Source of the DNA: Marsupella aquatica
Taxonomy: Eukaryota > Plantae > Marchantiophyta
Length of the DNA: 64,000 nt
NCBI GenBank assembly: GCA_973895155.1
Contig: OZ316898.1
Location: 8,729,079-8,793,078 of the forward strand
Direction of reading: 5' to 3'
Part shown: piece after piece, positions 3,687-27,217 of the stretch
How positions within the stretch are numbered: position 1 is the stretch's first letter
Layout: each line of letters starts with the position of its first letter
Notes under the pieces: generated by a model
The model's database searches: none
Seen by the model: the letters and a program-made list of their open reading frames with translations, nothing else
What the model was told of the DNA's origin: nothing
Made by a program: the position numbers and the translations under genes

Positions 3687-3869
3687 GCCTCGCCCCAAGG
3701 GCGAGGCTGCCTTTTCTTGTTTTCCTTGGTTAGAAGCAGATTAAAGCAAATGTTTGCCTCGCCCTCAGGGCGAGGCAACCTAGACTAGTCTCTCTAAGAA
3801 TAATTTCCTAGTTCCGTTTCAGTCAATTGCGGTGAGATGTAGAGGTTCGCCATGCCCTTGGGGCGAGGC
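3687..3869. repeat. Three more copies of the same 21-bp palindrome in predicted intron 2
   Basis: gcctcgccccaagggcgaggc (~3687), gcctcgccctcagggcgaggc (~3756), gccatgcccttggggcgaggc (~3849). Confidence 0.9.
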
Positions 3870-6585: not shown

Positions 6586-7624
6586 AATTCACTCCAATAC
6601 TACACTCTCCGATCCGGCGAAAGCTCTTGGTTCTTGACCTTAACAAGATTTGTTGGGATTGCATTAAGACCAGAAGCTCAGGACCATGGCAAAATCAGAC
6701 AAGTTTACGTGGTGTGCACTGGGGGAGACGTGGAGGGTTTAATTTCATGTATGTGGAGCGCCCATACCTCCACAAATTTCTATATGCAGCTTTCATGGTT
6801 TTTGATGTCGCAATTTGGACCTGTGCAAGGAGGCCAAAAACAATGGACTTAATGGAGTTGATTTTCACTGAGGAGGAGCGACAGAAGTTCAAGTTTGTCT
6901 TTACTCAAGAAGATACCTTTGATAGTTGCATCCAAAGGCCAGATATAACAGATGGGAAGGCCAATTTACTTCTGAAGAATTTGCAAACCATTTGGGACCG
7001 TTTTCCAGAAAATATGATGCTTCTAATACAGTTCTTATTGATGATTCTCCATTGAAGGCATTTTTGAATTATGACGAGAATGGATTGTTTCCAAATCCAT
7101 TTACTCACACAGCTTCAAATGACACTTTTTTGCCCGAGATATTATGGCCGTATCTTTGCAAATTGAGAAAGGCTTACTGCGTTCAACATTATATCACTGT
7201 CAACAATCCAAAGTGGTCTGTTTTCAATTTATTAACAAGCAAGGAGGATCATGTTGCCATCTATGCTCGTTTGGAACAGAAGTGGGGAGATTGTCGTTGT
7301 ATCCATAAGGAGTTTGGAACCATCTTGGATGTGACTCCTGAAGAGATTCCTTGGGACGGAAAGAACGAGGTGCAACATTACCCACCACTAGAGACGTGGA
7401 CCACGGATGAGATCGAAGAAACTGCAAACGTAATACTTGGAGACAACTATTCTGGTCCTCATACACAAAATAGAAGGCATTTTATTTGGAAAGTTCTCAG
7501 AACTAGGGATCTCACCAATAAGTTTAAGAACCACCATGCGAGAGATACTTGCAACCGTGACATCCGCTATGATAAATCAGGAAGTAGACTTTCTTGTTCA
7601 AATGAGTTTTGTCTTGATCATTAG
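6586..7624 (+). pseudogene. FCP1/NIF (NLI-interacting factor) HAD phosphatase-like domain, one frameshift near 7010
   Basis: KLLVLDLNK..., YVERPYLHKFL, FDVAIWTCA, LLKNLQTIWDRF then (other frame) YDASNTVLIDDSPLKAFLN are NIF-family motifs. DLN replaces DxD. Confidence 0.75.
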
Positions 7625-8279
7625 GAGATAGGGTTGCTCTAGTGCCTACCCTGAATTGTACATTCATATTATGTCAAAGGATATGTTTTGAACATGTAGG
7701 ATAATGTAAATAATTAGGATATGCTTAGTGTGAGGCTCTCTCACTGGATTGGACAATTTAATAATTATATAGTGGGTCAATCTCATTTTGACCCTTGATT
7801 TATGACCATCTATATTTTTTAATTTATAGATGGTCTGAGTGGTATTGGCCTCTGATTTTTGGACTAAATTAAATTTACTCTAATTTTTAAATTAATAGAA
7901 TATATGATTTAAGTTATTATTAAACATTTGGGTGAAAAAAATAAAATTTGGGCGTTCAAAAGTGTATATTTGGGCTGAAAAAAATTAGCTTTTGGGAATG
8001 CTTTAATAGAAATTTGGCCTGAAAAAAAATAACTTTAGGGTTCATCTTATGGACTTTTAAAAGTACAGTTTTAATGAATGCCGCGTCCCTAACCTGGGCC
8101 TTAAATCCAGTTTAGTGCCATGGTGCGACCTCGACCACCAGTAGGGGTGAGGGTTCGGGCAAGGAGGTGTGTAGTGTCCCCGATTAGCCCTAAGTCGGGC
8201 TAAGCCGATATACTTACTGGTATAACGCTTAAGCTATTCGTACTAGTCATAGGTATCTTTTATCTTCCACCGCTGGAAT

Positions 8280-11200
8280 TGTGATGCCTAGACAGGAATC
8301 ACTCGGCCGGTTAAGTGGGTAAAGCAGGAAGGCACCCTAGGAACACCTTAGTATAGTGACAAAACAAGGAAAATATAAACAATTAGGGGCAACCATGGAA
8401 CCCGGGCAGAGGCCGGAGGTAAGGCTGAGGGTGAAAACCCGATTAGGGTTAGGGCGCGTTAAGCGTCGGCGGCTAGGAAGGATCAACGGGAAGAAGGACC
8501 GGCAGAGGAGAGGGGTAAGGAGCGCTTGCAGGAGATGGTGGCTCATTTGCGAGCACGAACTAGGCAGACGACTACGGGAGGCCAACTACTGTCAGCTGCT
8601 TAGGCAAGCACTCGGGGAGAGAGTAGATACCGACGATCGACCTAAGGAGGGTATGAGCAACGTCAATCAAGCGGCACATTTCTGGGGATGCCTGTTCGAA
8701 CGGGCAACTGAGTACATCAAGACTTACGAGGACGAGGAGTCAGAAAGGGCAGCTCGAGAACGGCAGGAGCTCGCTCGATTGTGGGAGCTGCAGAAGACGG
8801 CTTTCTTAGGAGGCGAACTCATCAAGGACGAGTTCCTATGGACGCCTACTTCCAATCAACCCGACGATCTTCTGTTTTGCAAAGACAGCGTCGTCGGCAT
8901 CCGAGAGGCCATCAAGAACTGCAACGACATACACTGGGAATTAAAGGGTAGCACGGAAAGGTGGACCCGGGCAACGGTGCTAGGAGAAACCTCCACGGCA
9001 GCAGAGATGAAGAGGAAGGGGGCCGTCAACGATGAAGCCACCCCGGCAAAAAGAACGAGGTCGGCGGCACCAAAGAAGCCAGCCGAGCAGCAGAGCAAGG
9101 GGCAGGGAGAAGCCGAAGAGGAGGAGGTCGATCCCATCAAGGCCATTCCAACCAGGGATGACACCTGGAAGGGCTGGGCGGCAACCCTACCGGTGGAGGT
9201 GCAACTACATTTTGCACGGGAGGAGGATGCATGCTTTACGGCCATGCAGACCAAGAAGTACCAAGGCTTCATGGCCGGATCCAGCTTGGAGGCCTTTGTA
9301 AGATTACCATGGCTGAAGCCGGAGGTACCGGAGTCAGACCTATTAGAATTCGTGGGGTCATGGGAACCCGAGACCAATTGCACGAGGATATATGGGAAGG
9401 ATTTCTATCTTACTCCCAAGGTGATTGCCGAAGTGTTTGGCTTGCCGATGGGCAATAAGACCAAAGTTGATACCAGGAAGACCTTGCCTGACAAGGAGTT
9501 CCGGTCGTTCCCCGGGCCATCAACGAAGAATGGCTTCTTCCGGAACACCTGCACCAACCCGCACATAGGAGAGATGATCGACTTCTTGCGGGTGACCATG
9601 CATTGTAACTTACCGAGGGCAGAGATCGGCAAGGCACAGGTCTATCTGGCAGAAAGGCCAGACCCAAGCCGGGACTACAACGGGTACCTCCTCAACCAAT
9701 TGAAGAAGATCTTAAAGGAGGAGCAGCAGGTAATCGGCATGGGGAGCGTGTCGCGGCTTGGCTATCACATGCCGCTGTTGTGCCGGTATGCCAGAGGTCA
9801 GACTTTTGCCCCGGTACTTCCCCTGCAGGTAAGGGCACCCGAGGAAACTCCAACGCCGAGGCCGTTGGCTGAGAAGCCTCAACCACCTGTTAGTCCTACG
9901 ATCGAGCAGGTGTTTAGGCCCAAGAAGGAAGACTTGCCGATGCAGCAACCAGGCATGCAGAGTCTGCTGAAACTACTGGAGAAAGAAAAGAAATCGGCAT
10001 CGGCAACAACAACGGCAACGGCAACAATGCAGGACACTACTACAGAGGTAGGCCTACACCGGCTCACAAGAGAAAACCCCTTTGCTGGAGACAAGAAGAG
10101 AATCAGGCCGGAATCCAAGCCAGGTGTTCGAATGTACGTGGGAACCTCAACCTCCAAATCTGAGGCAGAATTGCCTGAAGCTCCTACCGAGGAAGAGGAG
10201 AGGGAGAAGCCGGACGTCCAAGAGGTAGAGGAGGCAGTGGAGGACTGCAACCATGATAATTCCGGCTATGGGTCGGACCATCACGTTCCAGGAGTAAGGA
10301 CCTGTGGCCGGTTTGTCCCCACACTTCCAAGGGTAGTGCGAGGGGACCCCAACCAGCAGAGTAGCCCTGAGTCTCCCCCACCAGATGTCGCTCCCCCGAG
10401 CTTCGACGGCATAAAACAGACGGTGCAGGAATTTCAGGAGCGAATCAAGCAGGAGGAAGAGGCCGCCCTGGCTAAGGAAAAGGATTTACCAGGAGGAGAT
10501 TGGCCGGAGGACATCAGGCGGCTAGCCGAAAAAGGAAGCAAACCTCTAGCCACGATTGAAGAGATCCGCAGGACGGCGTGGGAGCAGAGGCCACGATGGG
10601 CGATGCCGATCACTTCTACTTACTCCACCTACGCTAAGAATAGAGCCATGGAGTATGGTGAGATGTGTGGGGAACTTGCGCTCGGCATCTTTGGAGAGGA
10701 GTTGGAGGTAGGACCCTTTTTTCATAGGGAGCAGTTGGAGAAGCACCAATTAGAAGAAGCGGTGGCTTTAGAGAGAAGCAAGAAGGACGAGGTCATTCGG
10801 CGGCTTAGGAGGATGGAAGCCGAGATTGAAGATCTAAGGGCGGCCAAGAAAGCCCAAGATGAACTGCGGATTAAACGACATGAGCTGAACATCATGCAGG
10901 GGCAGTTGGACGCCGCGCAGGCTGATAATCAGAATATCAAGGATAAACTGACTCAGACACAGGAAGAGTTGGCCGACACGATCAAAGAGAGGGAAAAGTG
11001 GAAGCAAGAGCTGAAGAATACAGAGGAGGCCCACATAACAGCCAACAGCCGGGCCATGGCGGAGACCCAAAGAAAGGAATGGGCATTGAAAGGGGAGCTC
11101 GAGAAAATCCGCGGAGCCCTTGAGCAGAAGGAGGTCGAGTTAGGGAAATCCTATCAAGGGATTATGGCGCTGCAGCAGGAGCTTGCGTCCCTGACGGCCA

Positions 11201-12939
11201 GCTTCAAGGCCGACCTAAGGGAGAAGGACGAGATGCTCGAACAGACTTACGCCAAGATGAACCAGATGGAGTCTGTCATCATTGCAGAGCTCGACAAGGA
11301 GCTAAGAGCAACCCAGGAGGAGAGGGCTACCTTGAAGAAGGAATTGGAGAAAGCCCACAGGGAGCAGGAGGAGGCCAAAAACGAGCTGGAGGGGGCACGT
11401 AAGGACCTGGATGAAACCCAAGAGGAGTTGGAGGAAATCACGAGGAAGATGGAGAACCTACAGCGGCGGGCCGACAACCAAACAGAGCGGCTGAAGAAAC
11501 AAGCCGCAGTATTTAAATGCTTAGCTGCAGCAGGTCCATCTCCCGTTGGGACAAACCAGTTACCAGGGGTGGTAATTGCCGAAGGACAAGCCGCGTCAAC
11601 TGCACCAGTGCCGGAAGTAAGTGGGAAGGGGAAGGGACCAGCTGCCGAGCCACCAACGAAGAAGAAGCGGAAACCTTCAGGGTCAAGGAGTAATATGACT
11701 TCACAGGCCGTGGTGATCAAGGAGGTAGACCCAGCACCGACCCCAGACAGGGTCACGGCTAAGGATCCAACTACCCTAGGGGAAGGGGAGGCCGAGGCCG
11801 AGGGAGTGGCTGAAGCCGAAGCCGTGGGAGTGGCTGAGGCCGAAGCCGTGGGTATTGCCGAGGCCGGTGTCGAGGCTGAAGCCGAAGGTGGACCCAGTCA
11901 GGCCGATGGAGAGTTGACTCGGTCAAGGGCAGGTAATCTGTCAGTAGGCGGGCCAACGGCAGTGGCTGAGGAGGAAGTGTTGGGGGCGTCCATTGAGGAT
12001 CCACCACCGGTGTCGTGACGGTGCAAGGGCGCCGTTCCTTTTAGGGAGGGCGGACGTGGAGGGAGGAGGCGTGAGTGGGCAGGGCGGGCACGGATCTCCA
12101 CGTTTAGGATTAGGATCAGAACCAGGAGCGGCCCTGACACTTAGCTTAGTGGGATTGCGGTTCCACTGGTAGGAGCAACACTTGTGCTCCTGCCTTGCTG
12201 TACATAGGTAGATTCGGGCAAGTAGATTACTGTCAGGTAGATTAGGCTTACGATGCAAAGAATGGCGGATCCACTACCAGGATAAGTACCTGGGCAGCGG
12301 GGAGCTCAGGGCCTCTTCTTTAGCAAGTTTTTAGTTTGCACCAGCCGGGCTGGGATCAAGTAGTACGAGAAGCTCTCGGTTAGTCATACAGTGACCCTTG
12401 TGTATATTCATGTTTCCTCATGCCTAAGAGCTGAATAGAGTTGGCCTCACGGCTTAGTTCGCAGAACTTGTGTATGAGATGTACTGTTTGTATGGCAAGT
12501 GCATGGTATGACTCAGTCAGAATGAGTCATTTTGCTATTTGTGTGTCGCATTAACTTGTGTGAAGAGTGCCCACATCAACAGAAGGAAGGAAAGTAAGCA
12601 GGGGAGTGATAGTTGGATGTGTCGAGCTGAGAGAGGTCTTAGCGGCTTAACCAAGCCTATTGGGGATCATTCCGGCGGCGGAATCCAAACATACCTAACA
12701 AGACGGAGGGGAAGACAGGGGAAGACAAGGGAAGGCCTATATTAGGCCGGCTACGTATCTCATGACCCGATGAAGGATCTGTCCAGTATATGTGTGTAAA
12801 ATGTTAATAGTAGTAGTAGAAGGTTAGCAGCGTCCCATGCCGCTAAGCCGCGGAAACGGCCTCGCCAAGCACGAAACCTGTGGGAATCGGCTTGAGCTGG
12901 GGGGTTTCTTGGGTTTAGGGAGCCATGGGACGCACCACA
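8280..12939 (+). repeat. 5' LTR (4,660 bp)
   Basis: Starts TGTGATGCC, ends CGCACCACA; about 17 substitutions seen by eye versus the 3' LTR. Confidence 0.95.
8395..12018 (+). CDS. LTR-encoded ~1,207-aa protein (5' LTR copy): Arg-rich N-terminus, plant-retrotransposon accessory-ORF-like domain, long coiled coil, acidic repeat tail
   Basis: Open frame 8356-12018, first ATG 8395. LLEFVGSW...RIYGKDFYLTPKVIAEVFGLP resembles the Athila env-like/Transposase_32-type motif (by eye). Heptad-rich region ~10700-11510, PTKKKRKP NLS-like motif, EAEAVGV repeats. Confidence 0.8.
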   Translation: MEPGQRPEVRLRVKTRLGLGRVKRRRLGRINGKKDRQRRGVRSACRRWWLICEHELGRRLREANYCQLLRQALGERVDTDDRPKEGMSNVNQAAHFWGCLFERATEYIKTYEDEESERAARERQELARLWELQKTAFLGGELIKDEFLWTPTSNQPDDLLFCKDSVVGIREAIKNCNDIHWELKGSTERWTRATVLGETSTAAEMKRKGAVNDEATPAKRTRSAAPKKPAEQQSKGQGEAEEEEVDPIKAIPTRDDTWKGWAATLPVEVQLHFAREEDACFTAMQTKKYQGFMAGSSLEAFVRLPWLKPEVPESDLLEFVGSWEPETNCTRIYGKDFYLTPKVIAEVFGLPMGNKTKVDTRKTLPDKEFRSFPGPSTKNGFFRNTCTNPHIGEMIDFLRVTMHCNLPRAEIGKAQVYLAERPDPSRDYNGYLLNQLKKILKEEQQVIGMGSVSRLGYHMPLLCRYARGQTFAPVLPLQVRAPEETPTPRPLAEKPQPPVSPTIEQVFRPKKEDLPMQQPGMQSLLKLLEKEKKSASATTTATATMQDTTTEVGLHRLTRENPFAGDKKRIRPESKPGVRMYVGTSTSKSEAELPEAPTEEEEREKPDVQEVEEAVEDCNHDNSGYGSDHHVPGVRTCGRFVPTLPRVVRGDPNQQSSPESPPPDVAPPSFDGIKQTVQEFQERIKQEEEAALAKEKDLPGGDWPEDIRRLAEKGSKPLATIEEIRRTAWEQRPRWAMPITSTYSTYAKNRAMEYGEMCGELALGIFGEELEVGPFFHREQLEKHQLEEAVALERSKKDEVIRRLRRMEAEIEDLRAAKKAQDELRIKRHELNIMQGQLDAAQADNQNIKDKLTQTQEELADTIKEREKWKQELKNTEEAHITANSRAMAETQRKEWALKGELEKIRGALEQKEVELGKSYQGIMALQQELASLTASFKADLREKDEMLEQTYAKMNQMESVIIAELDKELRATQEERATLKKELEKAHREQEEAKNELEGARKDLDETQEELEEITRKMENLQRRADNQTERLKKQAAVFKCLAAAGPSPVGTNQLPGVVIAEGQAASTAPVPEVSGKGKGPAAEPPTKKKRKPSGSRSNMTSQAVVIKEVDPAPTPDRVTAKDPTTLGEGEAEAEGVAEAEAVGVAEAEAVGIAEAGVEAEAEGGPSQADGELTRSRAGNLSVGGPTAVAEEEVLGASIEDPPPVS

Positions 12940-12943
12940 TTTT

Positions 12944-12960
12944 TGGCGCTAGATGGAGGG
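12944..12960 (+). promoter_or_regulatory. Putative primer binding site
   Basis: TGGCGCTAGATGGAGGG, 4 nt after the 5' LTR CA. The cognate tRNA could not be assigned by eye. Confidence 0.7.
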
Positions 12961-13008
12961 GGCATTTCTTAAGCCGTGAGATATGAAGTTAGAACGGAAG
13001 CGTAGGTA

Positions 13009-14979
13009 ATGACTGACCTTACGCCGAGGGAAGAAAGAGTGATTCAACGGGAGAGAGCTCGACTGCAGCAGCTGGCCGGGTGGCATGATACACAGCAACT
13101 GAGAGGGGCAGAAAGAGCTGGTAGCTCCGAAACTGGAAGTGGCATCGAAGAAGACATACCAGAGGAAGAGTCGGTAAGGAGAAGTGAGTCTCCAACCGAC
13201 ATGGGGGAACCAGAGGCACGGCAAGACGAGAGGCCAGGGACCAGATTGAGCCAGCGGTCGCGCATACATTACAAAGCATTTCATGGGAGAGGAGATGAGG
13301 ATCCGGACGAATGGTTGGATGATTTCGAGGGAACCGCTGCAGCAAATGGAGAATCGGCCATCAAGATGCAGATTCTTCCCGGCCTGTTCAAGGGTGAGGC
13401 TAGGCCTTGGTACAGAGCATTAGATGTGGAAGATCAAGCCATCTGGGATATCTTCAAAACACTCTTTGTTAAGGAGTTTCGACCCATTGGAACTTCAGAA
13501 CTAGCAGTGCTGAAGTTGGGACAACTTCGGTTCAAGGAGAACAAATCCTTCAGGAAGTTCTTGCAACGCTTTCAGAAACTGGTAAGACGTACAAAGACCA
13601 ATGCATCTGAAGGTATGCAACTTCAATGGTTGGTGAATGCTTTGCCACAGAAGATGAGTTTTGCAATTAGGAAGGAGAACCCGGAGACTTTAGCCGAAGC
13701 AATTAAGGATATTCAATTATACATTAATGCAGATATCACAAGCCGGAAGAAACAGCTTAAGCCTGAGAGTTCCTCATCAGAGGAGGGATCACCCCATAAG
13801 AAAAAAGATAAGAAGAAGAAACATTCCAAGAAGTCTAGAAGTGATAAGTCAAGCTCGGATAGTGGGAGTAGCAAGAGTGAGTCATCTTCTAGTTCTGAAG
13901 AAGAAAAAACTAGGAAAAGGAAGGGCAGAAGGAGAGGGAAGACGAAAGTCAAGATGGAGGCTAAGCCACCAGATAACATCGTAGCCCTTACCGAGCAACT
14001 TAAGGCTATCATTGCAGAGGTAAAACCAAAGAAGGTAGTACAGGAGGATAGCTCTGTATGGTGTGCCTTATGTTATAAAACCGGACACCATAAAGATGCG
14101 TGTCCTAAGCTTAATACTAATCATGTTCGGCATGTGGCCGAGATCAGACCATGTCAGGGAGAAGTAGAGTACTTTTTGGGAGATGCCGCTGATAGTGTTT
14201 TCGGCATCAGTGAGACTGGAGCACGAGACCTATCCAACAGACCTGCATCTCTGTGGTCAGGGTTAAGGAACAATCCAGGAGAGATGTATCCTCGGATTAT
14301 TCAGAACCCGTCAGTACCTCCTAGGCCGAATGTGCAAAGATTTGCGGCGTGCTATAATTGTGGTCAACCTGGCCATTTTGCTAGAGAATGCCCGAATGCA
14401 CGCAAACAGGGTGATGGACAACCAGCTCAGCTATGTATGGGATGCCGACAGGAAGGTCATATGCTAGGGCAATGTCCTACTTGGTTGGCAGGCCTGGCCG
14501 CAAATCATAAGCTTTTGCCGATCAAGATCTTACCGCCAGGTACTACCCCCGGAGGAGTTCAAATCAACCACATCGAACTAGGATGGCAAGAGGATGCCGA
14601 GGCAGAGTTCGTACCATCTGATGATGAGGCCGAAGCCCTATCAACCTTCTCAAAGGAGGATTTAGATCATGATTGCTACCGGGTCTCTACTCGATCTACC
14701 AGAAGGAAGGAAAGGTGGGATGGGCTGGCCAAAAATAAAGGGAAGGTTACGGAGGAAAGGATCGACTCTTCGTCAACATCAACAGAAGGAGAAGGGAGGG
14801 CTCCGGCAATACAGGTAAGCCATGAGCCCACCAGTGAAACCAATCCTTCACAAGATAGCGACTTCAATCGAGATCATCCTAAGTTGTTCTACCCCTCTGT
14901 TACGGCTAGTGTTAAGGAACAACTAAGAGAATTAGAAACCCTGGAGAATACCGAAGCCATTGCCAAGGATGTAAAATGA
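13009..14979 (+). CDS. gag: Gag (retrotransposon gag domain + three CCHC zinc knuckles)
   Basis: FHGRGDEDPDEWLDDF...KGEARPWY...FVKEF capsid-like block; CALCYKTGHHKDAC, CYNCGQPGHFAREC, CMGCRQEGHMLGQC. Ends at a TGA in frame with the protease segment. Confidence 0.92.
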   Translation: MTDLTPREERVIQRERARLQQLAGWHDTQQLRGAERAGSSETGSGIEEDIPEEESVRRSESPTDMGEPEARQDERPGTRLSQRSRIHYKAFHGRGDEDPDEWLDDFEGTAAANGESAIKMQILPGLFKGEARPWYRALDVEDQAIWDIFKTLFVKEFRPIGTSELAVLKLGQLRFKENKSFRKFLQRFQKLVRRTKTNASEGMQLQWLVNALPQKMSFAIRKENPETLAEAIKDIQLYINADITSRKKQLKPESSSSEEGSPHKKKDKKKKHSKKSRSDKSSSDSGSSKSESSSSSEEEKTRKRKGRRRGKTKVKMEAKPPDNIVALTEQLKAIIAEVKPKKVVQEDSSVWCALCYKTGHHKDACPKLNTNHVRHVAEIRPCQGEVEYFLGDAADSVFGISETGARDLSNRPASLWSGLRNNPGEMYPRIIQNPSVPPRPNVQRFAACYNCGQPGHFARECPNARKQGDGQPAQLCMGCRQEGHMLGQCPTWLAGLAANHKLLPIKILPPGTTPGGVQINHIELGWQEDAEAEFVPSDDEAEALSTFSKEDLDHDCYRVSTRSTRRKERWDGLAKNKGKVTEERIDSSSTSTEGEGRAPAIQVSHEPTSETNPSQDSDFNRDHPKLFYPSVTASVKEQLRELETLENTEAIAKDVK

Positions 14980-15999
14980 GCAAAAGCATTGTTTGCTTCG
15001 GAAGACCCAACAGCTGTGGAGACTAGCGTGGCAAAACTGGCCGAATCCAAGACGGAAACACCACCAGAAGAGAAGCCGATTGTTCCCTATGACCTGGCTA
15101 AAGATGTACTAGAATCTAGAGTCTCGGCAACAGTAGGTCAACTATTGAAAAATAGCCCGTACTTCCGGAAGCAATTAAGGAAGGCTATTCTCAGCAAGCC
15201 GAGATTACCCAAGGTAGCAACCAGATCCGACGTACTAATGATAGAAGAAGATCAAGGAGCCCCAACATTACCATTAATGATTCAAGGAGAATTATTACTA
15301 CGGGTACCCATCGATGGAGGATCAGGGGTATGTATTATGATTGATTCAACAGCAAAAGGGTGGGGTCTAACACCGGAGATGACTGGAAGAGTGTTGAACA
15401 TGGCCAATGGATATCAGGTCATTCCGACGGGAGTGTTAACCGGCATCAAGACAGAGATAGGAGGTATCTTCTTTAGCATTAACTATGTAGTAATGAAGCC
15501 GGTAAATCCTACGTCATTCCGGCTATTGATTGGTAGGCCATGGCTGTACCTAGCCGAGGTAATAGAAGATTGGGGTAAAAAGCAGTTCACTTTCGGGACC
15601 CCCTCTATCACGGTATCCTGGGACACTAAGGATGACCGTAGGAAAAGCATAAGGGAAGTAGATGGGTACGATAGTGGACTGGAGTCAGCCGATGAAGTAC
15701 GTTGGTTAGAATGCCTCACTAACCTAACCGAAGAAGGTGTCTTTGGACCAGAGGTACCCCCCAGCGGATTATGGCAAGAACCAATGGAAGGTGACTTGGA
15801 AGAAGAAGACGAAGAGGTCGAGGACTGCTTTACAATAGAATCCACCTTTTTAGCTGCAATTCCGGAGGAAGTAAAGGATGTAGACCAATTGGATGAAACG
15901 GCTAAGTGGGGAGCAGTAGCAGGGACAGTGGATTTTCTGCAGGCGTTGTGGCAGAGCCGACGGGGTCCACAACGCCATCGATCATCGGCAAGGAATTAA
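14980..15999 (+). CDS. Aspartic protease segment (same frame as gag, after an in-frame TGA)
   Basis: VPIDGGSGVCIM active-site-like motif and LLIGRPWL. Confidence 0.85.
   Translation, partial: AKALFASEDPTAVETSVAKLAESKTETPPEEKPIVPYDLAKDVLESRVSATVGQLLKNSPYFRKQLRKAILSKPRLPKVATRSDVLMIEEDQGAPTLPLMIQGELLLRVPIDGGSGVCIMIDSTAKGWGLTPEMTGRVLNMANGYQVIPTGVLTGIKTEIGGIFFSINYVVMKPVNPTSFRLLIGRPWLYLAEVIEDWGKKQFTFGTPSITVSWDTKDDRRKSIREVDGYDSGLESADEVRWLECLTNLTEEGVFGPEVPPSGLWQEPMEGDLEEEDEEVEDCFTIESTFLAAIPEEVKDVDQLDETAKWGAVAGTVDFLQALWQSRRGPQRHRSSARN
15930..15989 (+). promoter_or_regulatory. Candidate -1 programmed ribosomal frameshift signal (slippery heptamer + H-type pseudoknot)
   Basis: G_GAT_TTT at 15930-15936 in the protease frame, 5-nt spacer, perfect 10-bp stem 15942-15951/15967-15976; loop GCCGA (15956-15960) complementary to TCGGC (15985-15989). 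The RT ORF is in the -1 frame. Confidence 0.7.
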
Positions 16000-18900
16000 A
16001 TACCAAGGGATCGGCATACAAGCCGTTTACGAGGGCAGAACAAATTGAGGCCCTATTAGAAGCCGAGAGAGCACAGCGGCCTAACTCTCAGGAGCAAGAG
16101 GTGGATGAGATGGACAGACACGATCTAGAGCCAAGGCAGGAAGGGGAGCCGACCACTAATTCAAAACCAAATAGACCGGTAAGGGGACAATCTATGGACA
16201 CCAAGGAAGGGACCGACTCGGCTAGTCCAGCCGAGATCCCAGTTTATGGAGGTATGAGATTAGAGAGACTGGAAGCCGAACTGGACCCGAATTTGAAGAA
16301 GCAGATTAATATGATCCAAGCACGGCAATATCGGAAGCTCGACTTAGGAGAGGGAAGAGAACTGAACTTAGGGAGAAACCTAGCACCTGAGCTCGAGAAA
16401 GAGATCAGTGACTTATTGATTGAATTTCAGGATGTGTTTGCATGGAGTCACCAAGATCTAAAGGGAGTAGATCCAACACTAGGGGAACATCGAATTGATC
16501 TCATGTTAGGAGCCAAATTATTTCGACAACCAATTCGAAGGATGAACCCGAAGTATTCCCTGCTGGTCAAAACAGAAATCGACAAACTAGTGGAAGCTGG
16601 ATTCATCACTCCAGTCCTGCATTCAGACTGGGTGTCTCCAATTGTGATAGTTCCCAAGAAAGCTGGACCCGATGGTAAACCCAAGATCCGGGTTTGTCAG
16701 GATTACAGGAAGCTGAATGAAGCAACATTAAAAGACCATTTTCCTTTACCGTTTACTGATATGGTACTAGACATGGTAGCCAGTCATGAACTATATTCAT
16801 TCATGGATGGATACTCTGGTTATAACCAAATCAGGATTCGGCAGGAAGACCAAATCAAGACGGCCTTCATCACGGAATGGGGGATCTATGTCTTCAATCG
16901 TATGCCGTTTGGACTCTGCAACGCACCAGCTATGTTCCAACGATTAATGGTGAACATTTTTCATGATTACTTGAGAAAGTTCATGGAAATCTTCATTGAT
17001 GACTTTGCAGTATTCGGGAAGGCATCGAAACATGCTAAATACCTCAGGAAAACCTTCATGAGATGTAGAGAGGTGGGTCTCAAGTTACACCCCGATAAAT
17101 GTTTTTTTTGCAGTAACCGAGGGGGTGCTACTAGGTCACAAGGTATCAAGGAAGGGCATTGAGATTGACAAAGGTAAGCTAGCAGTATGGCTAGATATCA
17201 TGCAACCTAAGAACATAAAGGATGTAAGATCCTTCTTGGGATGCATTGGTTACTATCGCCGGTTCATCAAGGATTTTGCCAAGCTGGCTTTACCATTAAC
17301 CAATATGCTCAAGGCAGGAGCAGACTTCGAACCCACACCCGAACGAGTCACAGCGGTGGTAGAATTGAAGCAGATGTTAGTAGAGGCCCCAGTCATGATA
17401 GCACCGGACTGGAACAAAGATTTTCATGTTTTTGTAGATGTCTCGGGCTTCTGTATTGGCTCAGTACTAAGTCAGTTGGATGAGAAAGGAAGGGACCATC
17501 CCATATACTTCGCAAGCCGTCAGCTTGCCGATGCCAAACGGAACTACTCTACCACGGAAAGAGAAGCATTAGGAGTCATTTATTCTTGTAAAAAGTTTAG
17601 GCATTATTTACTAGGGTACAAGGTAATCTTTCATACTGATCATGAAAGTTTGAAGTACCTAGTCAATAAGCCGGACCTTACAGGCAGAGTAGCAAGATGG
17701 ATTTTGCTATTACAGGAGTTTGACTATGAGCTGAGGATCAAGCCGGGAAAGTTACATGCCAATGCCGACTTCTTTTCAAGGATCACAGGTAAACCTGCCA
17801 CGGATTGCATCGATGATCGATTCCCCGACGAGGAGCTATTCGTTGTGGAGATAGCTGGTACATGGTACCCTGAGATTTTACAATTTCTCAGCACTTCCAG
17901 ATTACAGCCAGGATTAAGCCGAGAGCAAGCCGCAGTCTTTGTGCGAAAGGTCAGACAGTATCAGTGCATTAAAGGCATACTGCACAAGCATGGAATCAAC
18001 GGCACGATTCAAAGGTGTTTGGAAAAGAGAGAGGTAAAACGAGTCCTACGGGCCATGCATGGAGAGGAGGCCGGAGGACATTTTGCCCCAGTAACCACGT
18101 CTAAGAAGATATTAAATGCCGGTTACTGGTGGCCCACCTTGCACAAAGATGTCTATCAGTTTATCAAACAATGCGATCCTTGTCAACGAGCGGGAGGACC
18201 AAGGGCGTCCACCAGGCATCCACTGCACCCTATTCTACCTCTGGCACCATTCGAGAAGTGGGGTATTGATTACATTGGACCTCTGAAACCACTGACCCAC
18301 CCTCGACGGAACAAGTACATAATCCTGGCTACGGATTATGCAACTAAATGGGTAGAGGCCAGACCAACAACGAAGGATGATGCAATTACTACGGCTAGAT
18401 TCATGTATGAGCAGATCTTCACCAGGTATGGAGCACCCCTAGAATTAGTTAGTGATAGAGGAACCCATTTTTTGAATGATATAATTAGTCGTTTAAATGA
18501 GCAGTATTTAGTTAAACATAGGCCTACTACTCCCTACCATCCAAAGGCAAACGGGTTGACAGAACGAGCAAACGGAATCATAGGAAAGATATTGAACAAG
18601 ACAGTAGCTCAGAACAAACTCGATTGGGATGATAAATTGTTTGCTGCTGTTTTTGCTTACAATCTTGCCTATAAATCCACTACCGGTCATACACCCTTCT
18701 TCTTAACCTTTGGACAAGAAGCCCTGGTACCCATGCAACTTGAGATACCGACATTTCAAGTTACAATTGAGGAAAGAGCCTCAGCGGAGGAGAGCCTAAA
18801 GGAGCGAGAATATAGGTTAGAAGCTTTAGAGGAAGCGAGAATGATTTCAGCCGAGAGAGTAGAATATAGACAGAATATCATGAAGCAGCAGTATGATAAA

Positions 18901-19173
18901 AGGTTAAAAGTAGTTAGTATTCATACCGGTGATCTTGTGCTACTTTATGACAGTAGGTATAGTAGGTTTCCAGGAAAGCTTTACACTCACTGGTTAGGAC
19001 CCTTTAGAGTAACCATGATGTTCCCCAATGGCTCCGTACAATTGGCCAACATTACGGGAGAGGTATATCCAGTTCGCATCCATTATGACCGCCTCAAGAA
19101 ATACTATATGGACGAAGATGAAGTTGTTCGTGAGGACGCTTCACAATTAAGTGGGGAGCTATGTGATGCCTAG
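15930..19173 (+). CDS. pol: Pol: reverse transcriptase, RNase H, integrase (one frameshift in T8 run 17102-17109)
   Basis: RVCQDYRKLN, MDGYSGYNQI, MPFGLCNAPA, FIDDF (RT); VDVSGFCIGSVL, RNYSTTEREAL, TDH (RH); H-H-C-C, GIDY...SDRG...NGLTERAN, GPF (INT). Removing one T restores PDKCFFAVTEGVLLGH. The stop codon lies inside the 3' LTR. Confidence 0.93.
19149..19161 (+). promoter_or_regulatory. Polypurine tract
   Basis: AAGTGGGGAGCTA immediately before the 3' LTR TG, inside the integrase reading frame. Confidence 0.7.
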
Positions 19174-22100
19174 ACAGGAATCACTCGGCCGGTTAAGTGG
19201 GTAAAGCAGGAAGGCACCCTAGGAACACCTTAGTATAGTGACAAAACAAGGAAAATATAAACAATTAGGGGCAACCATGGAACCCGGGCAGAGGCCGGAG
19301 GTAAGGCTGAGGGTGAAAACCCGATTAGGGTTAGGGCGCGTTAAGCGTCGGCGGCTAGGAAGGATCAACGGGAAGAAGGACCGGCAGAGGAGAGGGGTAA
19401 GGAGCGCTTGCAGGAGATGGTGGCTCATTTGCGAGCACGAACTAGGCAGACGACTACGGGAGGCCAACTACTGTCAGCTGCTTAGGCAAGCACTCGGGGA
19501 GAGAGTAGATACCGACGATCGACCTAAGGAGGGTATGAGCAACGTCAATCAAGCGGCACATTTCTGGGGATGCCTGTTCGAACGGGCAACTGAGTACATC
19601 AAGACTTACGAGGACGAGGAGTCAGAAAGGGCAGCTCGAGAACGGCAGGAGCTCGCTCGATTGTGGGAGCTGCAGAAGACGGCTTTCTTAGGAGGCGAAC
19701 TCATCAAGGACGAGTTCCTATGGACGCCTACTTCCAATCAACTCGACGATCTTCTGTTTTGCAAAGACAGCGTCGTCGGCATCCGAGAGGCCATCAAGAA
19801 CTGCAACGACATACACTGGGAATTAAAGGGTAGCACGGAAAGGTGGACCCGGGCAACGGTGCTAGGAGAAACCTCCACGGCAGCAGAGATGAAGAGGAAG
19901 GGGGCCGTCAACGATGAAGCCACCCCGGCAAAAAGAACGAGGTCGGCGGCACCAAAGAAGCCAGCCGAGCAGCAGAGCAAGGGGCAGGGAGAAGCCGAAG
20001 AGGAGGAGGTCGATCCCATCAAGGCCATTCCAACCAGGGATGACACCTGGAAGGGCTGGGCGGCAACCCTACCGGTGGAGGTGCAACTACATTTTGCACG
20101 GGAGGAGGATGCATGCTTTACGGCCATGCAGACCAAGAAGTACCAAGGCTTCATGGCCGGATCCAGCTTGGAGGCCTTTGTAAGATTACCATGGCTGAAG
20201 CCGGAGGTACCGGAGTCAGACCTATTAGAATTCGTGGGGTCATGGGAACCCGAGACCAATTGCACGAGGATATATGGGAAGGATTTCTATCTTACTCCCA
20301 AGGTGATTGCCGAAGTGTTTGGCTTGCCGATGGGCAATAAGACCAAAGTTGATACCAGGAAGACCTTGCCTGACAAGGAGTTCCGGTCGTTCCCCGGGCC
20401 ATCAACGAAGAATGGCTTCTTCCGGAACACCTGCACCAACCCGCACATAGGAGAGATGATCGACTTCTTGCGGGTGACCATGCATTGTAACTTACCGAGG
20501 GCAGAGATCGGCAAGGCACAGGTCTATCTGGCAGAAAGGCCAGACCCAAGCCGGGACTACAACGGGTACCTCCTCAACCAATTGAAGAAGATCTTAAAGG
20601 AGGAGCAGCAGGTAATCGGCATGGGGAGCGTGTCGCGGCTTGGCTATCACATGCCGCTGTTGTGCCGGTATGCCAGAGGTCAGACTTTTGCCCCGGTACT
20701 TCCCCTGCAGGTAAGGGCACCCGAGGAAACTCCAACGCCGAGGCCGTTGGCTGAGAAGCCTCAACCACCTGTTAGTCCTACGATCGAGCAGGTGTTTAGG
20801 CCCAAGAAGGAAGACTTGCCGATGCAGCAACCAGGCATGCAGAGTCTGCTGAAACTACTGGAGAAAGAAAAGAAATCGGCATCGGCAACAACAACGGCAA
20901 CGGCAACAATGCAGGACACTACTACAGAGGTAGGCCTACACCGGCTCACAAGAGAAAACCCCTTTGCTGGAGACAAGAAGAGAATCAGGCCGGAATCCAA
21001 GCCAGGTGTTCGAATGTACGTGGGAACCTCAACCTCCAAATCTGAGGCAGAATTGCCTGAAGCTCCTACCGAGGAAGAGGAGAGGGAGAAGCCGGACGTC
21101 CAAGAGGTAGAGGAGGCAGTGGAGGACTGCAACCATGATAATTCCGGCTATGGGTCGGACCATCACGTTCCAGGAGTAAGGACCTGTGGCCGGTTTGTCC
21201 CCACACTTCCAAGGGTAGTGCGAGGGGACCCCAACCAGCAGAGTAGCCCTGAGTCTCCCCCACCAGATGTCGCTCCCCCGAGCTTCGACGGCATAAAACA
21301 GACGGTGCAGGAATTTCAGGAGCGAATCAAGCAGGAGGAAGAGGCCGCCCTGGCTAAGGAAAAAGATTTACCAGGAGGAGATTGGCCGGAGGACATCAGG
21401 CGGCTAGCCGAAAAAGGAAGCAAACCTCTAGCCACGATTGAAGAGATCCGCAGGACGGCGTGGGAGCAGAGGCCACGATGGGCGATGCCGATCACTTCTA
21501 CTTACTCCACCTACGCTAAGAATAGAGCCATGGAGTATGGTGAGATGTGTGGGGAACTTGCGCTCGGCATCTTTGGAGAGGAGTTGGAGGTAGGACCCTT
21601 TTTTCATAGGGAGCAGTTGGAGAAGCACCAATTAGAAGAAGCGGTGGCTTTAGAGAGAAGCAAGAAGGACGAGGTCATTCGGCGGCTTAGGAGGATGGAA
21701 GCCGAGATTGAAGATCTAAGGGCGGCCAAGAAAGCCCAAGATGAACTGCGGATTAAACGACATGAGCTGAACATCATGCAGGGGCAGTTGGACGCCGCGC
21801 AGGCTGATAATCAGAATATCAAGGATAAACTGACTCAGACACAGGAAGAGTTGGCCGACACGATCAAAGAGAGGGAAAAGTGGAAGCAAGAGCTGAAGAA
21901 TACAGAGGAGGCCCACATAACAGCCAACAGCCGGGCCATGGCGGAGACCCAAAGAAAGGAATGGGCGTTGAAAGGGGAGCTCGAGAAAATCCGCAGAGCC
22001 CTTGAGCAGAAGGAGGTCGAGTTAGGGAAATCCTATCAAGGGATTATGGCGCTGCAACAGGAGCTTGCGTCCTTGACGGCCAGCTTCAAGGCCGACCTAA

Positions 22101-23821
22101 GGGAGAAGGACGAGATGCTCGAACAGACTTACGCCAAGATGAACCAGATGGAGTCTGTCATCATTGCAGAGCTCGACAAGGAGCTAAGAGCAACCCAGGA
22201 GGAGAGGGCTACCTTGAAGAAGGAATTGGAGGAAGCCCACAGGGAGCAGGAGGAGGCCAAAAACGAGCTGGAGGGGGCACGTAAGGACCTGGATGAAACC
22301 CAAGAGGAGTTGGAGGAAATCACGAGGAAGATGGAGAACCTACAGCGGCGGGCCGACAACCAAACAGAGCGGCTGAAGAAACAAGCCGCAGTATTTAAAT
22401 GCTTAGCTGTAGCAGGTCCATCTCCCGTTGGGACAAACCAGTTACCAGGGGTGGTAATTGCCGAAGGACAAGCCGCGTCAACTGCACCAGTGCCGGAAGT
22501 AAGTGGGAAGGGGAAGGGACCAGCTGCCGAGCCACCAACGAAGAAGAAGCGGAAACCTTCAGGGTCAAGGAGTAATACGACTTCACAGGCCGTGGTGATC
22601 AAGGAGGTAGACCCAGCACCGACCCCAGACAGGGTCACGGCTAAGGATCCAACTACCCTAGGGGAAGGGGAGGCCGAAGCCGAGGGAGTGGCTGAAGCCG
22701 AAGCCGTGGGAGTGGCTGAGGCCGAAGCCGTGGGTATTGCCGAGGCCGGTGTCGAGGCTGAAGCCGAAGGTGGACCCAGTCAGGCCGATGGAGAGTTGAC
22801 TCGGTCAAGGGCAGGTAATCTGTCAGTAGGCGGGCCAACGGCAGTGGCTGAGGAGGAAATGTTGGGGGCGTCCATTGAGGATCCACCACCGGTGTCGTGA
22901 CGGTGCAAGGGCGCCGTTCCTTTTAGGGAGGGCGGACGTGGAGGGAGGAGGCGTGAGTGGGCAGGGCGGGCGCAGATCTCCACGTTTAGGATTAGGATCA
23001 GAACCAGGAGCGGCCCTGACACTTAGCTTAGTGGGATTGCGGTTCCACTGGTAGGAGCAACACTTGTGCTCCTGCCTTGCTGTACATAGGTAGATTCGGG
23101 CAAGTAGATTACTGTCAGGTAGATTAGGCTTACGATGCAAAGAATGGCGGATCCACTACCAGGATAAGTACCTGGGCAGCGGGGAGCTCAGGGCCTCTTC
23201 TTTAGCAAGTTTTTAGTTTGCACCAGCCGGGCTGGGATCAAGTAGTACGAGAAGCTCTCGGTTAGTCATACAGTGACCCTTGTGTATATTCATGTTTCCT
23301 CATGCCTAAGAGCTGAATAGAGTTGGCCTCACGGCTTAGTTCGCAGAACTTGTGTATGAGATGTACTGTTTGTATGGCAAGTGCATGGTATGACTCAGTC
23401 AGAATGAGTCATTTTGCTATTTGTGTGTCGCATTAACTTGTGTGAAGAGTGCCCACATCAACAGAAGGAAGGAAAGTAAGCAGGGGAGTGATAGTTGGAT
23501 GTGTCGAGCTGAGAGAGGTCTTAGCGGCTTAACCAAGCCTATTGGGGATCATTCCGGCGGCGGAATCCAAACATACCTAACAAGACGGAGGGGAAGACAG
23601 AGGAAGACAAGGGAAGGCCTATATTAGGTCGGCTACGTATCTCATGACCCGATGAAGGATCTGTCCAGTATATGTGTGTAAAATGTTAATAGTAGTAGTA
23701 GAAGGTTAGCAGCGTCCCATGCCGCTAAGCCGCGGAAACGGCCTCGCCAAGCACGAAACCTACGGGAATCGGCTTGAGCTGGGGGGTTTCTTGGGTTTAG
23801 GGAGCCATGGGACGCACCACA
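19162..23821 (+). repeat. 3' LTR (4,660 bp)
   Basis: Direct repeat of 8280-12939, followed by TSD GGAAT. Confidence 0.95.
19277..22900 (+). CDS. LTR-encoded ~1,207-aa protein (3' LTR copy)
   Basis: Open frame 19238-22900; differs from the 5' copy by about 6 amino-acid changes and no indels. Confidence 0.8.
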   Translation: MEPGQRPEVRLRVKTRLGLGRVKRRRLGRINGKKDRQRRGVRSACRRWWLICEHELGRRLREANYCQLLRQALGERVDTDDRPKEGMSNVNQAAHFWGCLFERATEYIKTYEDEESERAARERQELARLWELQKTAFLGGELIKDEFLWTPTSNQLDDLLFCKDSVVGIREAIKNCNDIHWELKGSTERWTRATVLGETSTAAEMKRKGAVNDEATPAKRTRSAAPKKPAEQQSKGQGEAEEEEVDPIKAIPTRDDTWKGWAATLPVEVQLHFAREEDACFTAMQTKKYQGFMAGSSLEAFVRLPWLKPEVPESDLLEFVGSWEPETNCTRIYGKDFYLTPKVIAEVFGLPMGNKTKVDTRKTLPDKEFRSFPGPSTKNGFFRNTCTNPHIGEMIDFLRVTMHCNLPRAEIGKAQVYLAERPDPSRDYNGYLLNQLKKILKEEQQVIGMGSVSRLGYHMPLLCRYARGQTFAPVLPLQVRAPEETPTPRPLAEKPQPPVSPTIEQVFRPKKEDLPMQQPGMQSLLKLLEKEKKSASATTTATATMQDTTTEVGLHRLTRENPFAGDKKRIRPESKPGVRMYVGTSTSKSEAELPEAPTEEEEREKPDVQEVEEAVEDCNHDNSGYGSDHHVPGVRTCGRFVPTLPRVVRGDPNQQSSPESPPPDVAPPSFDGIKQTVQEFQERIKQEEEAALAKEKDLPGGDWPEDIRRLAEKGSKPLATIEEIRRTAWEQRPRWAMPITSTYSTYAKNRAMEYGEMCGELALGIFGEELEVGPFFHREQLEKHQLEEAVALERSKKDEVIRRLRRMEAEIEDLRAAKKAQDELRIKRHELNIMQGQLDAAQADNQNIKDKLTQTQEELADTIKEREKWKQELKNTEEAHITANSRAMAETQRKEWALKGELEKIRRALEQKEVELGKSYQGIMALQQELASLTASFKADLREKDEMLEQTYAKMNQMESVIIAELDKELRATQEERATLKKELEEAHREQEEAKNELEGARKDLDETQEELEEITRKMENLQRRADNQTERLKKQAAVFKCLAVAGPSPVGTNQLPGVVIAEGQAASTAPVPEVSGKGKGPAAEPPTKKKRKPSGSRSNTTSQAVVIKEVDPAPTPDRVTAKDPTTLGEGEAEAEGVAEAEAVGVAEAEAVGIAEAGVEAEAEGGPSQADGELTRSRAGNLSVGGPTAVAEEEMLGASIEDPPPVS

Positions 23822-24609
23822 GGAATCCTCCCTCAGTTAGTGACTCGGACTAACTCCCGGCTTGGGGCTTTTCAAGCCATCGACGCGAAAGAACTTTGTG
23901 ACATACAATGGGTGGCAATCCCTACCATTAGTCCACACCCGGTACGTCCCTTAAAATGGTGCCTTTGCCCAGACAAAGCATACTCACCACACCAGTTACT
24001 TGCAGAAACATTAGAGGGAAAAGACTACATTTACTTAGCAAAGCATCAGTTTACATGGTTGATTCGACTTCAAAGGGGGTCAGCAGGCCCAATGGCAGTC
24101 GATGCCCAGTCTCTACGAGGCCCCGCCTCGCACTTGCCCAACAAGCTCGACTCTGGCTCTCACTCCTTAGTGCGCTCTGACCCTGCTCAGGCCGGGACTC
24201 CCCGTGCCTCACCTATCTTTTGCCGAGATAACTAAGCCTTCTCCCCCTTCCATAGCGGAAGGGGAAGCCTAAATACTACAGTTTGCGGAAGAGAACCGGA
24301 GGATACTACCTTTCGGGATACTACCTACTGCCTAACTACCTTGACTACTGGTCGTGCCGCACTGACCGGTTGACCGTCGACGACAAGGGTGCCAACCGGG
24401 ATGGCAGCGGCCAAGCCTTTTGACAAAAATCTAGTCCATTGATGAACTCCATCCTTTGTTGGCTGATCCTAACTGATCCGGCCCTAATTCTTCCTACTGC
24501 CGCTAATCGGTGCCTAATGACAGTCATTCTGTCGTTGCACCTAACCGAAAGATGTCGTTGTCTTAACTGCCTCGCGTGGCGCCTGCTTCCACCCTTCGCT
24601 AACCACCCC

Positions 24610-27217
24610 TTACATGGGTGCTGTGGTTGGACCAGGGCTGGTCCCCTTGTCAGGGCGAGACCTCGAGCCGCCTTGATCAGAGGTGGGCCCAGGTTTTCCC
24701 CGCTGGAGGACGAGCAGGGTAACGCGGTCCTGCAAGGCCTTGTTGTCCCGTACCGCCTCCTCCGCCTCGTTTGCAGCTTCATCGGCCTCGGCCTGGAGCC
24801 GCGCTACCTCCAAGTTGAGATGGTTAATGGAGTCGCGATGGATCTGGTCCTGCGCCAGCAATTTATCCCGCTCGGCGGAGAGACTAGCCACCTGCTGCGC
24901 TGCCTACAGGAATTGTTTGTTGAGGTCGGTCAGGCTGGTAACCCGAGCCAAAGATTCTGAGCGTAATTGAAGCACGGTGTCGTCCAGCTTCTTGAGATCT
25001 GCTTGCGCTCTGCTTAACTCCTGGGTTAGTCCGTCCCTCTGTTCGACGGTGCGGACTAACTCCTCGCGGCGGGTAGTGGCCTCCTCCTCGAGGTGCTCTA
25101 CCAGCATCTGGAGGCGCCCGATCTCATTCCCCTTCGCCATGAGTTCTTCTTCCAAGCGGCTTACGATCCGTGGTTGGTGCTCTAACATGAAGAAGGCTGG
25201 TTGAAAGTACGCCGAGACTTGTTGTCCGATGTATGTTGCCAGCTCCCCAGACATAGTCTGGCTAAACTTCTGGACCAGGTCGTAGGCCATGGTCCCCGGG
25301 GCTACTTGGTAGTCCTCCATCCTCTCGGGTATCGGTGGTTCCTTGGGCGGGGCAACAAGCTCCTCCGTAGTCTGCGCTGGGGAGGGGAAGGTTTCTTCAG
25401 GTGGTGGAGGGATTGGGGGTGGTTGTACTGCGGGTAGTGGAGGCTCGACGGAAGGGGGCAGCGGAATTTCTAAAGGAGGAGGTGGTGGAGTATTACTCGG
25501 GGCTTTCGGCTCGGGGCTTGCCTGAGGGACGGTAGTCCGTGTGCTTGGGGTTGCCTCCTCTGGTGCACGGGTGATATTAGTCGGGGCTGAGGTGGCCATA
25601 TTCTTTCCTCTGGCCTCCCGCCGTGCCTTGTACCAGGCAAGGATAATGGCGATATGGCTTCCCAAGTAAGTCTTCCCCCCAATAGCCATACCACCCTGAG
25701 CCCGCTTCAGCTCCCCCAAGAATCTTCGGTAGAAGAATTGGGCCCAGTTCCGCCGTTTGTACTGTTCCACCTGCACGATCGTGCAGAGGGAAATCTCGGA
25801 TCGTGGCTCAATCATGTGTAGGGTAGTCCGTATGAAGTTAAAACGCTCCATGCAGATTAAGTTGGTGCACGACCCCTGCTTGTATCCATTGTCTGTCTTA
25901 CCCTCAGGTTTGAAGTGCTGCGGCGTATACTCCTTATCCCAAATTCGGAGTTCAACTGGCACCGGCCCGATTGGCAGATAGAAGATTTGCGTTAACCGAT
26001 GCTCCGTCAGTGATAAGGCCTGCCCCAAAACCTTGGTGGTCGATGCGTCAGTGTCAAAATTGGAGATGAACTCACAAATCTCCTTCGGCCTGACGGCGCA
26101 CGGCCTCCATAGCAAGTGAGCGAACCGCTCCAACTGATGCTCCTTCAGATAGTCCGCGTGTTTGAGTTTCTTGATCGCGATCCAGACTACTTCGGGGATG
26201 CGAATTACTTGTAATAAGTTGGACTTCGGGTTATCCGGGGGTCGTCGGTTCTGGTTGGCCGGGGGGTTTGCCGGGGCAGGGGCAGGTGCAGGCGCGGCGT
26301 TGGTTTGCGTTGTTGATTCGGGGGCCGTCGTCGTCCTTGATCGCTTACGAGAATGATGTTCGAGTTGCGGACTAACTTGCTCGGAACCCGAAGAACACTC
26401 TGTGTTGATCACTGGACGGACTTGGGACCGGTTTGGCGGTACGCCGGTGGTCATCGACTGAGGCACTGGTGGTATCGGGGTAGCCATATCCCAGTTGAAG
26501 GCGTTGGAGCTTTCCCCGAGGAATGTAAGATTACGCGCCGCTTCCCGTTGTCTGCTGATGTCTTCTTGGCACTTTTCGGCTGCAATCTGCTGGTCTAGGT
26601 ACCCCGAAATCTTGTCGAACTCCGCTTGAGTAAGCCGTTGGCTGCCCTTCAACTTAAAGAACTTCACTGGGACTTCAAGAATCGCCTCTGCTACCGATCT
26701 AAGCCCTTCCTCGCTGAGATATAGTTCGGTGATGTAGTCTCCTAGCTCGTTGTAGCTGGAATCCCTGGTGATGGCTGTCCTTTCGCAATTAACCAGTGCT
26801 ACCTTGGTCACCAGCTTCGCGTATCTTTGTTCGTAAGCGGCTTTCTCGGGACAAGAGTACCAGTAAGTCTCGGAGAACTTAGCACCTACCTCGCCAAACA
26901 AGGTCCAAAATCCCAAGGTTGTAAGGGTCATACTAACCTCGTAGTCCGGTCCGTTGAGTCCACGTTCCCACTCGGCTGGTCCTTTTGCTGGTGGAGGTCT
27001 CGCTCGTCCTGACTAAATCTTGCCATATTCTACTCTTATCCCTCGATAATCTCCTTGTAAAGGTCGACTTGATTCGATCAAAAAGGCGAGTGGATGGCAA
27101 CGTCCGCGAATTCCAAAAAGGTGGAAATGAGCAAATGGCCCGCAGTGCCATCGGCTCCTCTCTTATGGAGGTGCCAGGATGAGCCCGAGCGTGAGAAGGC
27201 CAGGCCGTTTTGGTCAT
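24610..27217 (-). pseudogene. Homolog of the LTR-encoded protein inside the solo LTR (in-frame TAG at 24904-24906; probable frameshift near 26932)
   Basis: FAHLLWRPCAVRPKEICEFISNFDTDASTTKVLGQALSLTEHRLTQIFYLPIG aligns with FVRLPWLKPEVPESDLLEFVGSWEPETNCTRIYGKDFYLTPKVIAEVFGLPMG; NGYKQGSCTN..FIRTTLHMIEPRSEI aligns with NGFFRNTCTN..FLRVTMHCNLPRAEI. The coiled-coil C-terminus continues in frame to 24610. Confidence 0.85.

Follow-up and report, generated by a model that had tools for sequence, protein, structure and literature searches.

Additional open reading frames (ORFs) coding for PMD, Transposase_28 or ATHILA domains together with coiled coils are known from plant Gypsy retrotransposons of the Athila, Ogre and Retand groups, where they lie either between the long terminal repeat (LTR) and gag or between pol and the LTR (PMC7264820, PMC6317226, PMC4408406, PMC11963269, PMC11728184), and their function is described as unknown (PMC7264820, PMC6317226, PMC11963269). 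LTRs of up to ~5 kb also occur in non-chromoviruses (PMC6317226). Meanwhile, accessory ORFs that lie within the LTR and are doubled on integration are represented by sag of mouse mammary tumour virus (MMTV) and lentiviral nef (PMC2664473). The contrast between internal extra ORFs in plants and LTR genes in these retroviruses, drawn in a preliminary description of the locus presented here, agrees with the literature (PMC7264820, PMC2664473). The window analysed is a stretch of 64,000 nucleotides from the liverwort Marsupella aquatica (contig OZ316898.1, positions 8,729,079 to 8,793,078), in which a Ty3/Gypsy element at 8280-23821 carries a 3.6-kb ORF within each of its two LTRs. On balance, it is probable that this is a non-chromovirus Gypsy element with an extra gene in each LTR, likely in U3, whose product is a predicted DNA-binding coiled-coil factor of the VANC/PMD fold that likely shields the element from silencing.

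Self-BLAST of the window revealed an ungapped 4,660-bp direct repeat with 99.635% identity (8280-12939 versus 19162-23821). The TG..CA ends, a 5-bp target-site duplication (TSD), a primer-binding site (PBS) at 12944 and a polypurine tract (PPT) reaching 19161 uphold the earlier assignment of these repeats as a Gypsy LTR pair, as does the order of gag, protease (PR), reverse transcriptase (RT), RNase H (RH) followed by integrase (INT), which is that of Ty3/Gypsy (by Pfam; PR by homology alone). The features of the element are given below, where L numbers denote related loci from a set of 26 metagenome loci retrieved with the RH-INT region and X numbers denote sequencing runs.

8275..8279, forward strand: left TSD, GGAAT (sequence reading)
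8280..12939, forward strand: 5' LTR, 4,660 bp, TG..CA (self-BLAST, termini)
8395..12018, forward strand: LTR ORF copy 1 in the 5' LTR, 1,207 aa, ATG at 8395
9187..9813, forward strand: conserved ~200-aa domain with a VANC21-like predicted fold (structure prediction; Transposase_32/ATHILA-like language-model features)
10831..11526, forward strand: predicted coiled coil, aa ~813-1044 (simple heptad score; weak ATG16 Pfam match under the cut-off)
12944..12961, forward strand: PBS, sequence TGGCGCTAG, 4 nt past the first LTR copy (joints of the LTR end to 12940 in X1 and X2)
13009..14979, forward strand: gag (Retrotrans_gag, zinc knuckles), terminated by a stop (Pfam)
14980..15999, forward strand: protease-like frame without Pfam match (homology to the post-gag region of L001, L002, L004, L012 and L013)
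15906..17162, forward strand: main part of RT, with a frame break near its end (Pfam, contigs)
17062..19173, forward strand: end of RT, RH and INT (Pfam, frame reading)
19145..19161, forward strand: PPT, purine-rich, ending just before the second LTR (end of a conserved cassette found also 5' of the LTR start in relatives)
19162..23821, forward strand: 3' LTR, 4,660 bp, TG..CA (self-BLAST, termini)
19277..22900, forward strand: LTR ORF copy 2 in the 3' LTR, 1,207 aa, sharing 99.5% identity with copy 1, ATG at 19277
23822..23826, forward strand: right TSD, GGAAT (sequence reading)

An empty focal site was found in run X6, a contig of which joins 8279 directly to the sequence from 23827 on. The PBS is taken by us to be of the tRNA-Asn type; no tRNA gene was found within the 64-kb window. 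The integrase frame crosses the PPT and stops 12 nt within the 3' LTR (19173) with no pol-LTR spacer, and hence there is no space for an internal extra gene. In the focal copy pol is interrupted by a post-gag stop and by two shifts of frame, so that this copy is probably defective, with both LTR ORFs nonetheless open. The stop at the end of gag is also present in L002 and L004, and some other copies of the element in the run contigs are free of the RT frame break.

The presence of a long sense ORF in both repeats, as previously described, was substantiated: the stop-free frame comprises 1,225 codons, or 78% of each LTR, while dinucleotide-shuffled versions of the LTR (n=200) had longest frames of 172 codons on average and 277 at most. 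The ORF also displays a codon-position bias (p=3e-36). Parts of the element are present in 10 runs from 8 studies, and at least half of its words in five of them. Contigs of the runs X1, X2, X5 and X6 were aligned to 12940-28500; the window itself may derive from one of these runs. Relative to gag-RT, the median ORF depth in the four runs was 3.3-3.8-fold; relative to the non-coding part of the LTR it was 0.73-1.58-fold. These ratios serve as a hint, summed contig depth not being copy number. A single ORF per element would match the internal depth, so that the ORF appears not to occur once per element. In X5 and X6 other flanking sequence leads into the LTR, and no contig of run X7 lies on 7950-8500. 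It had been proposed that short-LTR copies, or proof of faulty assembly, would overturn the layout; the depth ratios, the joints between LTR end and internal region, the other flanks and a homologue in a second family all speak for it, and it is nearly certain that the element is multi-copy and that the layout is real and family-wide.

This second family is represented by the solo LTR into which the focal element has inserted.

23827..27480, reverse strand: main part of the solo LTR, insertion target of the focal element (sequence comparison, run contigs)
8079..8279, reverse strand: 3' end of the solo LTR, with an end motif like that of the focal LTR (same basis)
24904..26931, reverse strand: ORF of the solo LTR, open for 675 aa before a stop, with the frame continuing for ~97 codons further (homology to the focal ORF)
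27481..27485, forward strand: solo-LTR TSD, ATGAA, other copy at 8074-8078 (empty site in X2 and X5)

The solo LTR, with TG..CA ends, spans 27480 to 8079 and measures 3,855 bp once the focal insertion is subtracted; both of its edges were confirmed by contigs of other runs (X6 across the focal site, X2 and X5 across the empty site); in X6 a PBS of the same type follows ~17 nt beyond its end. It exhibits no significant DNA similarity to the focal LTR, and its ORF product shares 27% identity over 244 aa with residues 271-502 of the focal protein (E 1.7e-17). The neighbour is a second family's solo LTR in which the ORF was retained and is now interrupted by a premature stop. The expectation that a solo LTR keeps a whole gene holds as far as the retention of the whole ORF is concerned; the retained ORF may be a working gene, although in the focal family only 115 bp of LTR precede the ATG. 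At 27800-27960, in the flank of the solo LTR, contig depth was very high and loose ends were numerous in each of the four runs, marking a short, widespread repeat.

Compared with the described systems, the element resembles Athila (REXdb non-chromovirus/OTA), with which it shares the Gypsy order, the 5-bp TSD, the lack of a second RNase H or chromodomain match and a sense extra ORF after the integrase (PMC6317226), and the ATHILA ORF-1 (PF03078) and Transposase_32 (PF20167) families of the Athila extra ORF are the Atlas clusters nearest to the focal domain by language-model features. In the focal pol frames only RT_RNaseH was found, with no Pfam match to a second RNase H or a chromodomain at E<=0.1. 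Athila elements use PBS types of tRNA-Asp, -Asn or -Ala (PMC6317226). However, the Athila ORF lies between pol and the PPT, whereas the focal ORF lies 3' of the PPT and occurs twice per element; in addition, the focal pol enters the LTR, its RH-INT is ~39-41% identical to the angiosperm rows of the tree (42-64% to liverwort proteins), and its ORF has no Pfam match at the cut-off. The PMD-coiled-coil ORFs of Tat lineages IV and V (Tat/Ogre) and the TRP28 ORFs of Retand likewise combine a PMD-type domain with a following coiled coil (PMC4408406), but they are described as lying 5' of gag or as antisense ORFs behind pol, in elements with an extra archaeal-type RNase H that was not detected here. 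Phygy and Selgy resemble the focal element in that the polyprotein fills the internal region, but have a 4-bp TSD and no extra ORF (PMC6317226). The rice elements Retrosat2, FRetro3 and RIRE3 (Tekay) have LTRs >3 kb, an extra ORF and many solo LTRs (PMC3485330), but belong to the chromovirus lineage, and their ORF0 is upstream of gag-pol and treated apart from the LTR. As for MMTV, its whole LTR measures 1.3 kb against the 3.6 kb of the focal ORF, and the proteins of these animal retroviruses are unrelated. No description of a plant LTR-resident ORF was found in the literature searched, which was mostly non-subscription, and REXdb element tables may list such cases. What is new here, as the comparison of sequences supports well, is therefore the placement in the LTR; extra ORFs, PMD-type domains and ~5-kb LTRs were already known. 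For gymnosperm TatII, extra ORFs are given at 23% for 5' sense and at 26% for 3' sense (PMC6317226, supplement 3), and these near-equal rates could reflect unrecognised LTR-resident ORFs.

Both placements of the ORF occur among the relatives. An ORF after the integrase that matches the domain profile at E<=0.001 was present in 8 of the 26 loci, and a conserved cassette of the PPT and the LTR start TGT in 10. This cassette directly follows the integrase in seven (L002, L004, L006, L009, L011, L015, L016), with the domain ORF behind it in L002, L006, L009 and L011; L004 shows the ORF start alone, L015 no match, and L016 is too short. The LTR start of L002 and L004 is repeated in inverted orientation at the LTR end that precedes the PBS. 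Conversely, the cassette lies 3' of the ORF in L001, L012 and L008 (the ORF of L008 being without domain match), and in L001 it is followed by a 1-kb LTR up to the PBS. The two ORF subfamilies are homologous. Most of the best named relatives of RH-INT belong to Calypogeia, Riccia and Marchantia; the viral contigs searched contained no RH-INT relative. Trees were built with 15 loci (a quick search) and 9 loci for which enough RH-INT was covered or the layout was known. When the tree is rooted on the angiosperm rows, L008 and L012 fall outside a clade (support 100/98) that unites the focal element, the L002 group and the internal-type L001 without separating these three from one another; the internal position of the ORF is hence likely ancestral. 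Moves into the LTR number two on the best tree and one in 40% of bootstrap trees; the move may have taken place once or twice.

The preliminary description regarded the gene as captured by the LTR. That the gene lies inside the LTR was confirmed, but the arrangement reads better as an LTR boundary shifted around a gene that is internal in relatives, and there is a good likelihood that the ORF came to lie in U3 in this way. Plus-strand synthesis begins at the PPT, which fixes the left edge of the LTR, and the DNA from PPT to R is consequently copied into both LTRs. If the cassette moved upstream of the once-internal gene, directly after the integrase, the gene would become part of U3 and be doubled at every insertion, and LTR-LTR recombination would leave it in each solo LTR. 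A G-run resembling a second PPT was observed right after the integrase stop in L001 (3760), L005, L007, L008, L012 and L024, mostly with no TG behind it; it is possibly a central PPT and the start point of the shift. A candidate vestigial PPT just past the focal ORF stop, resembling the G-tract of L001 by eye, was rejected (shuffles, p=0.11). In the marine-sediment contig L023 (798-5135) the order is unusual, with protease-like and other frames 3' of the integrase match.

The ORF product consists of a basic N-terminus, an N-terminal region weakly common to the neighbour solo-LTR ORF (E 0.002), the VANC21-like domain, a low-complexity linker, the coiled coil and a basic KKKRK stretch. Hydropathy gave no transmembrane helix (top 19-residue values of 0.98 for the focal and 1.13 for the neighbour ORF), so the protein does not resemble an env-like membrane protein. 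In two separate predicted models the best, and sole clear, structural match of the domain is the DNA-bound anti-silencing protein VANC21 (PDB 9lnk/9lnj), over ~200 residues with 8-12% identity; the models cover the conserved domain of the protein. VANC21, which also has a coiled coil (PMC13547354), and the PMD proteins MAIN, MAIL1 and MAIL2 are encoded by the VANDAL21 DNA transposon, a VANDAL Mutator-like element, and by host genes, respectively, rather than by a Gypsy LTR. The focal protein has no Pfam match to the PMD, Transposase_32, ATHILA or DUF1985 families at the curated cut-off; homologues score weakly (P0167 16.9 bits against a cut-off of 45; one locus ORF E 2.5e-4). Word-seeded searches retrieved no match for residues 1-520, nor for the alignment of the ORF protein (A3) among proteins of 1,303-3,720 aa, a range set by alignment length that makes this result little informative; the PDB sequence search and BFVD (E<=0.001) also gave no match. 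Four of ten domain homologues looked up were named from Calypogeia. As for past selection, its main sign is that the domain is conserved between families whose DNA cannot be aligned.

The palindrome TCCGGA occurs element-wide far above shuffles in L004 (57 copies), L002 (56) and L009 (37), and AGCGCT in L001 (14); strong palindrome enrichment was found in these and in L006 and L011, none in L008 and L012, and none beyond A-runs in four host controls. These palindromes are candidate binding sites of the extra-ORF protein. From the models, it is likely that the protein is a nuclear DNA or chromatin factor, and for a specifically anti-silencing role the chances appear even. The predicted domain would bind element DNA, oligomerise via the coiled coil and oppose silencing by methylation or Polycomb, in the way that VANC21 acts on VANDAL21 and MAIN/MAIL on genes, with solo LTRs as a trans-acting reservoir of the factor. 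Some observations weigh against this: the fold match is moderate and carries no proof of function, no motif exceeds shuffles in the focal LTR, and of the small number of ORF sites seen to vary, in samples that are biased or post-insertion, most are non-synonymous.

It is conceivable, albeit doubtful, that the gene works from the 3' copy alone, by an internal pol promoter or splicing, the 5' and solo copies being silent passengers without benefit. In favour of this, the ATG of copy 2 follows the pol stop by 104 nt, the space before the focal ATG is short and the neighbour solo-LTR ORF contains a stop; however, other LTR-type families have ~250-750 bp, a promoter-sized space, before the first ATG, and the layout persists, despite its cost, across families ~50% identical in integrase. 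Rather unlikely is a structural or trafficking role within the same layout (RNA export, a particle or pre-integration-complex scaffold, integration targeting), to which the long coiled coil, the basic stretches, the missing motif enrichment of the focal element and the Rev-like or nuclear-import roles proposed for extra ORFs (PMC7264820) would be suited, but not the structural match to VANC21 or the element-wide palindromes of relatives. Still less probable is a position of the ORF in R/U5, 3' of the transcription start, as the leading gene of the genomic RNA, comparable to the Ogre 5' ORF, with gag-pol expressed by splicing. A TATA-like word ~21 nt before the ATG, the strong start context and, in Tat lineage IV, the placement of PMD-coiled-coil ORFs 5' of gag (PMC4408406) agree with it, but a TATA so close would set the start at or past the ATG, strong-stop DNA of >4 kb would presumably be required, and the homologous ORFs of L001 and L012 lie between integrase and PPT, where a cassette shift makes such DNA U3. 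A local duplication or assembly artefact, suggested by the uneven spread of the 17 LTR differences (all transitions, distance 0.0037; 2 in the first 2.8 kb, 15 in the last 1.9 kb; Kolmogorov-Smirnov p=3e-4), which could also stem from conversion, inter-copy recombination or consensus polishing, is largely refuted by the positions of TSD, PPT and PBS, the depth ratios and joints in four runs and the layout shared with the second family and metagenome relatives.

Returning to the LTR-resident, putatively anti-silencing gene, a solo LTR, usually a non-coding scar, is here a unit of 3.9-4.7 kb retaining a large ORF, and the extent of an LTR is an evolvable boundary fixed by the position of the PPT. 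Annotation will tend to take such ORFs for host genes, and size-limited finders will miss LTRs of this kind. The VANC21-like fold and the hexamer-saturated relatives offer a concrete, testable protein-and-target pair. More speculatively, bryophyte-type Gypsy lineages may, perhaps repeatedly, have put a VANC-like sequence-specific anti-silencing gene in the LTR, turning solo LTRs into self-contained cassettes of the gene and, for some families, the palindromic motifs that it would target, so that the host's main deletion route would multiply the counter-defence; the extra ORFs of Athila and Tat would then be anti-silencers too.

The flanks of the window contain plant-like genes (leucine-rich repeat receptor kinase, PaO and VID27 by Pfam). 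Upstream of the element, broken ORFs on the forward strand (2710-7624, up to 8078) include a weak N6_N4 methyltransferase match (E 0.03, under the cut-off) and NIF phosphatase matches, and the first of them presumably bears a ParB-like motif. The DNA at 7950-8078 has high depth in X2 and runs on past 27485 at the empty site of the solo LTR; the region 2710-8078 may thus be a third, methylase-carrying repeat hosting the solo LTR. Finally, self-BLAST revealed degenerate tandem arrays at 1589-1924, 29920-30735 and 40791-41543.

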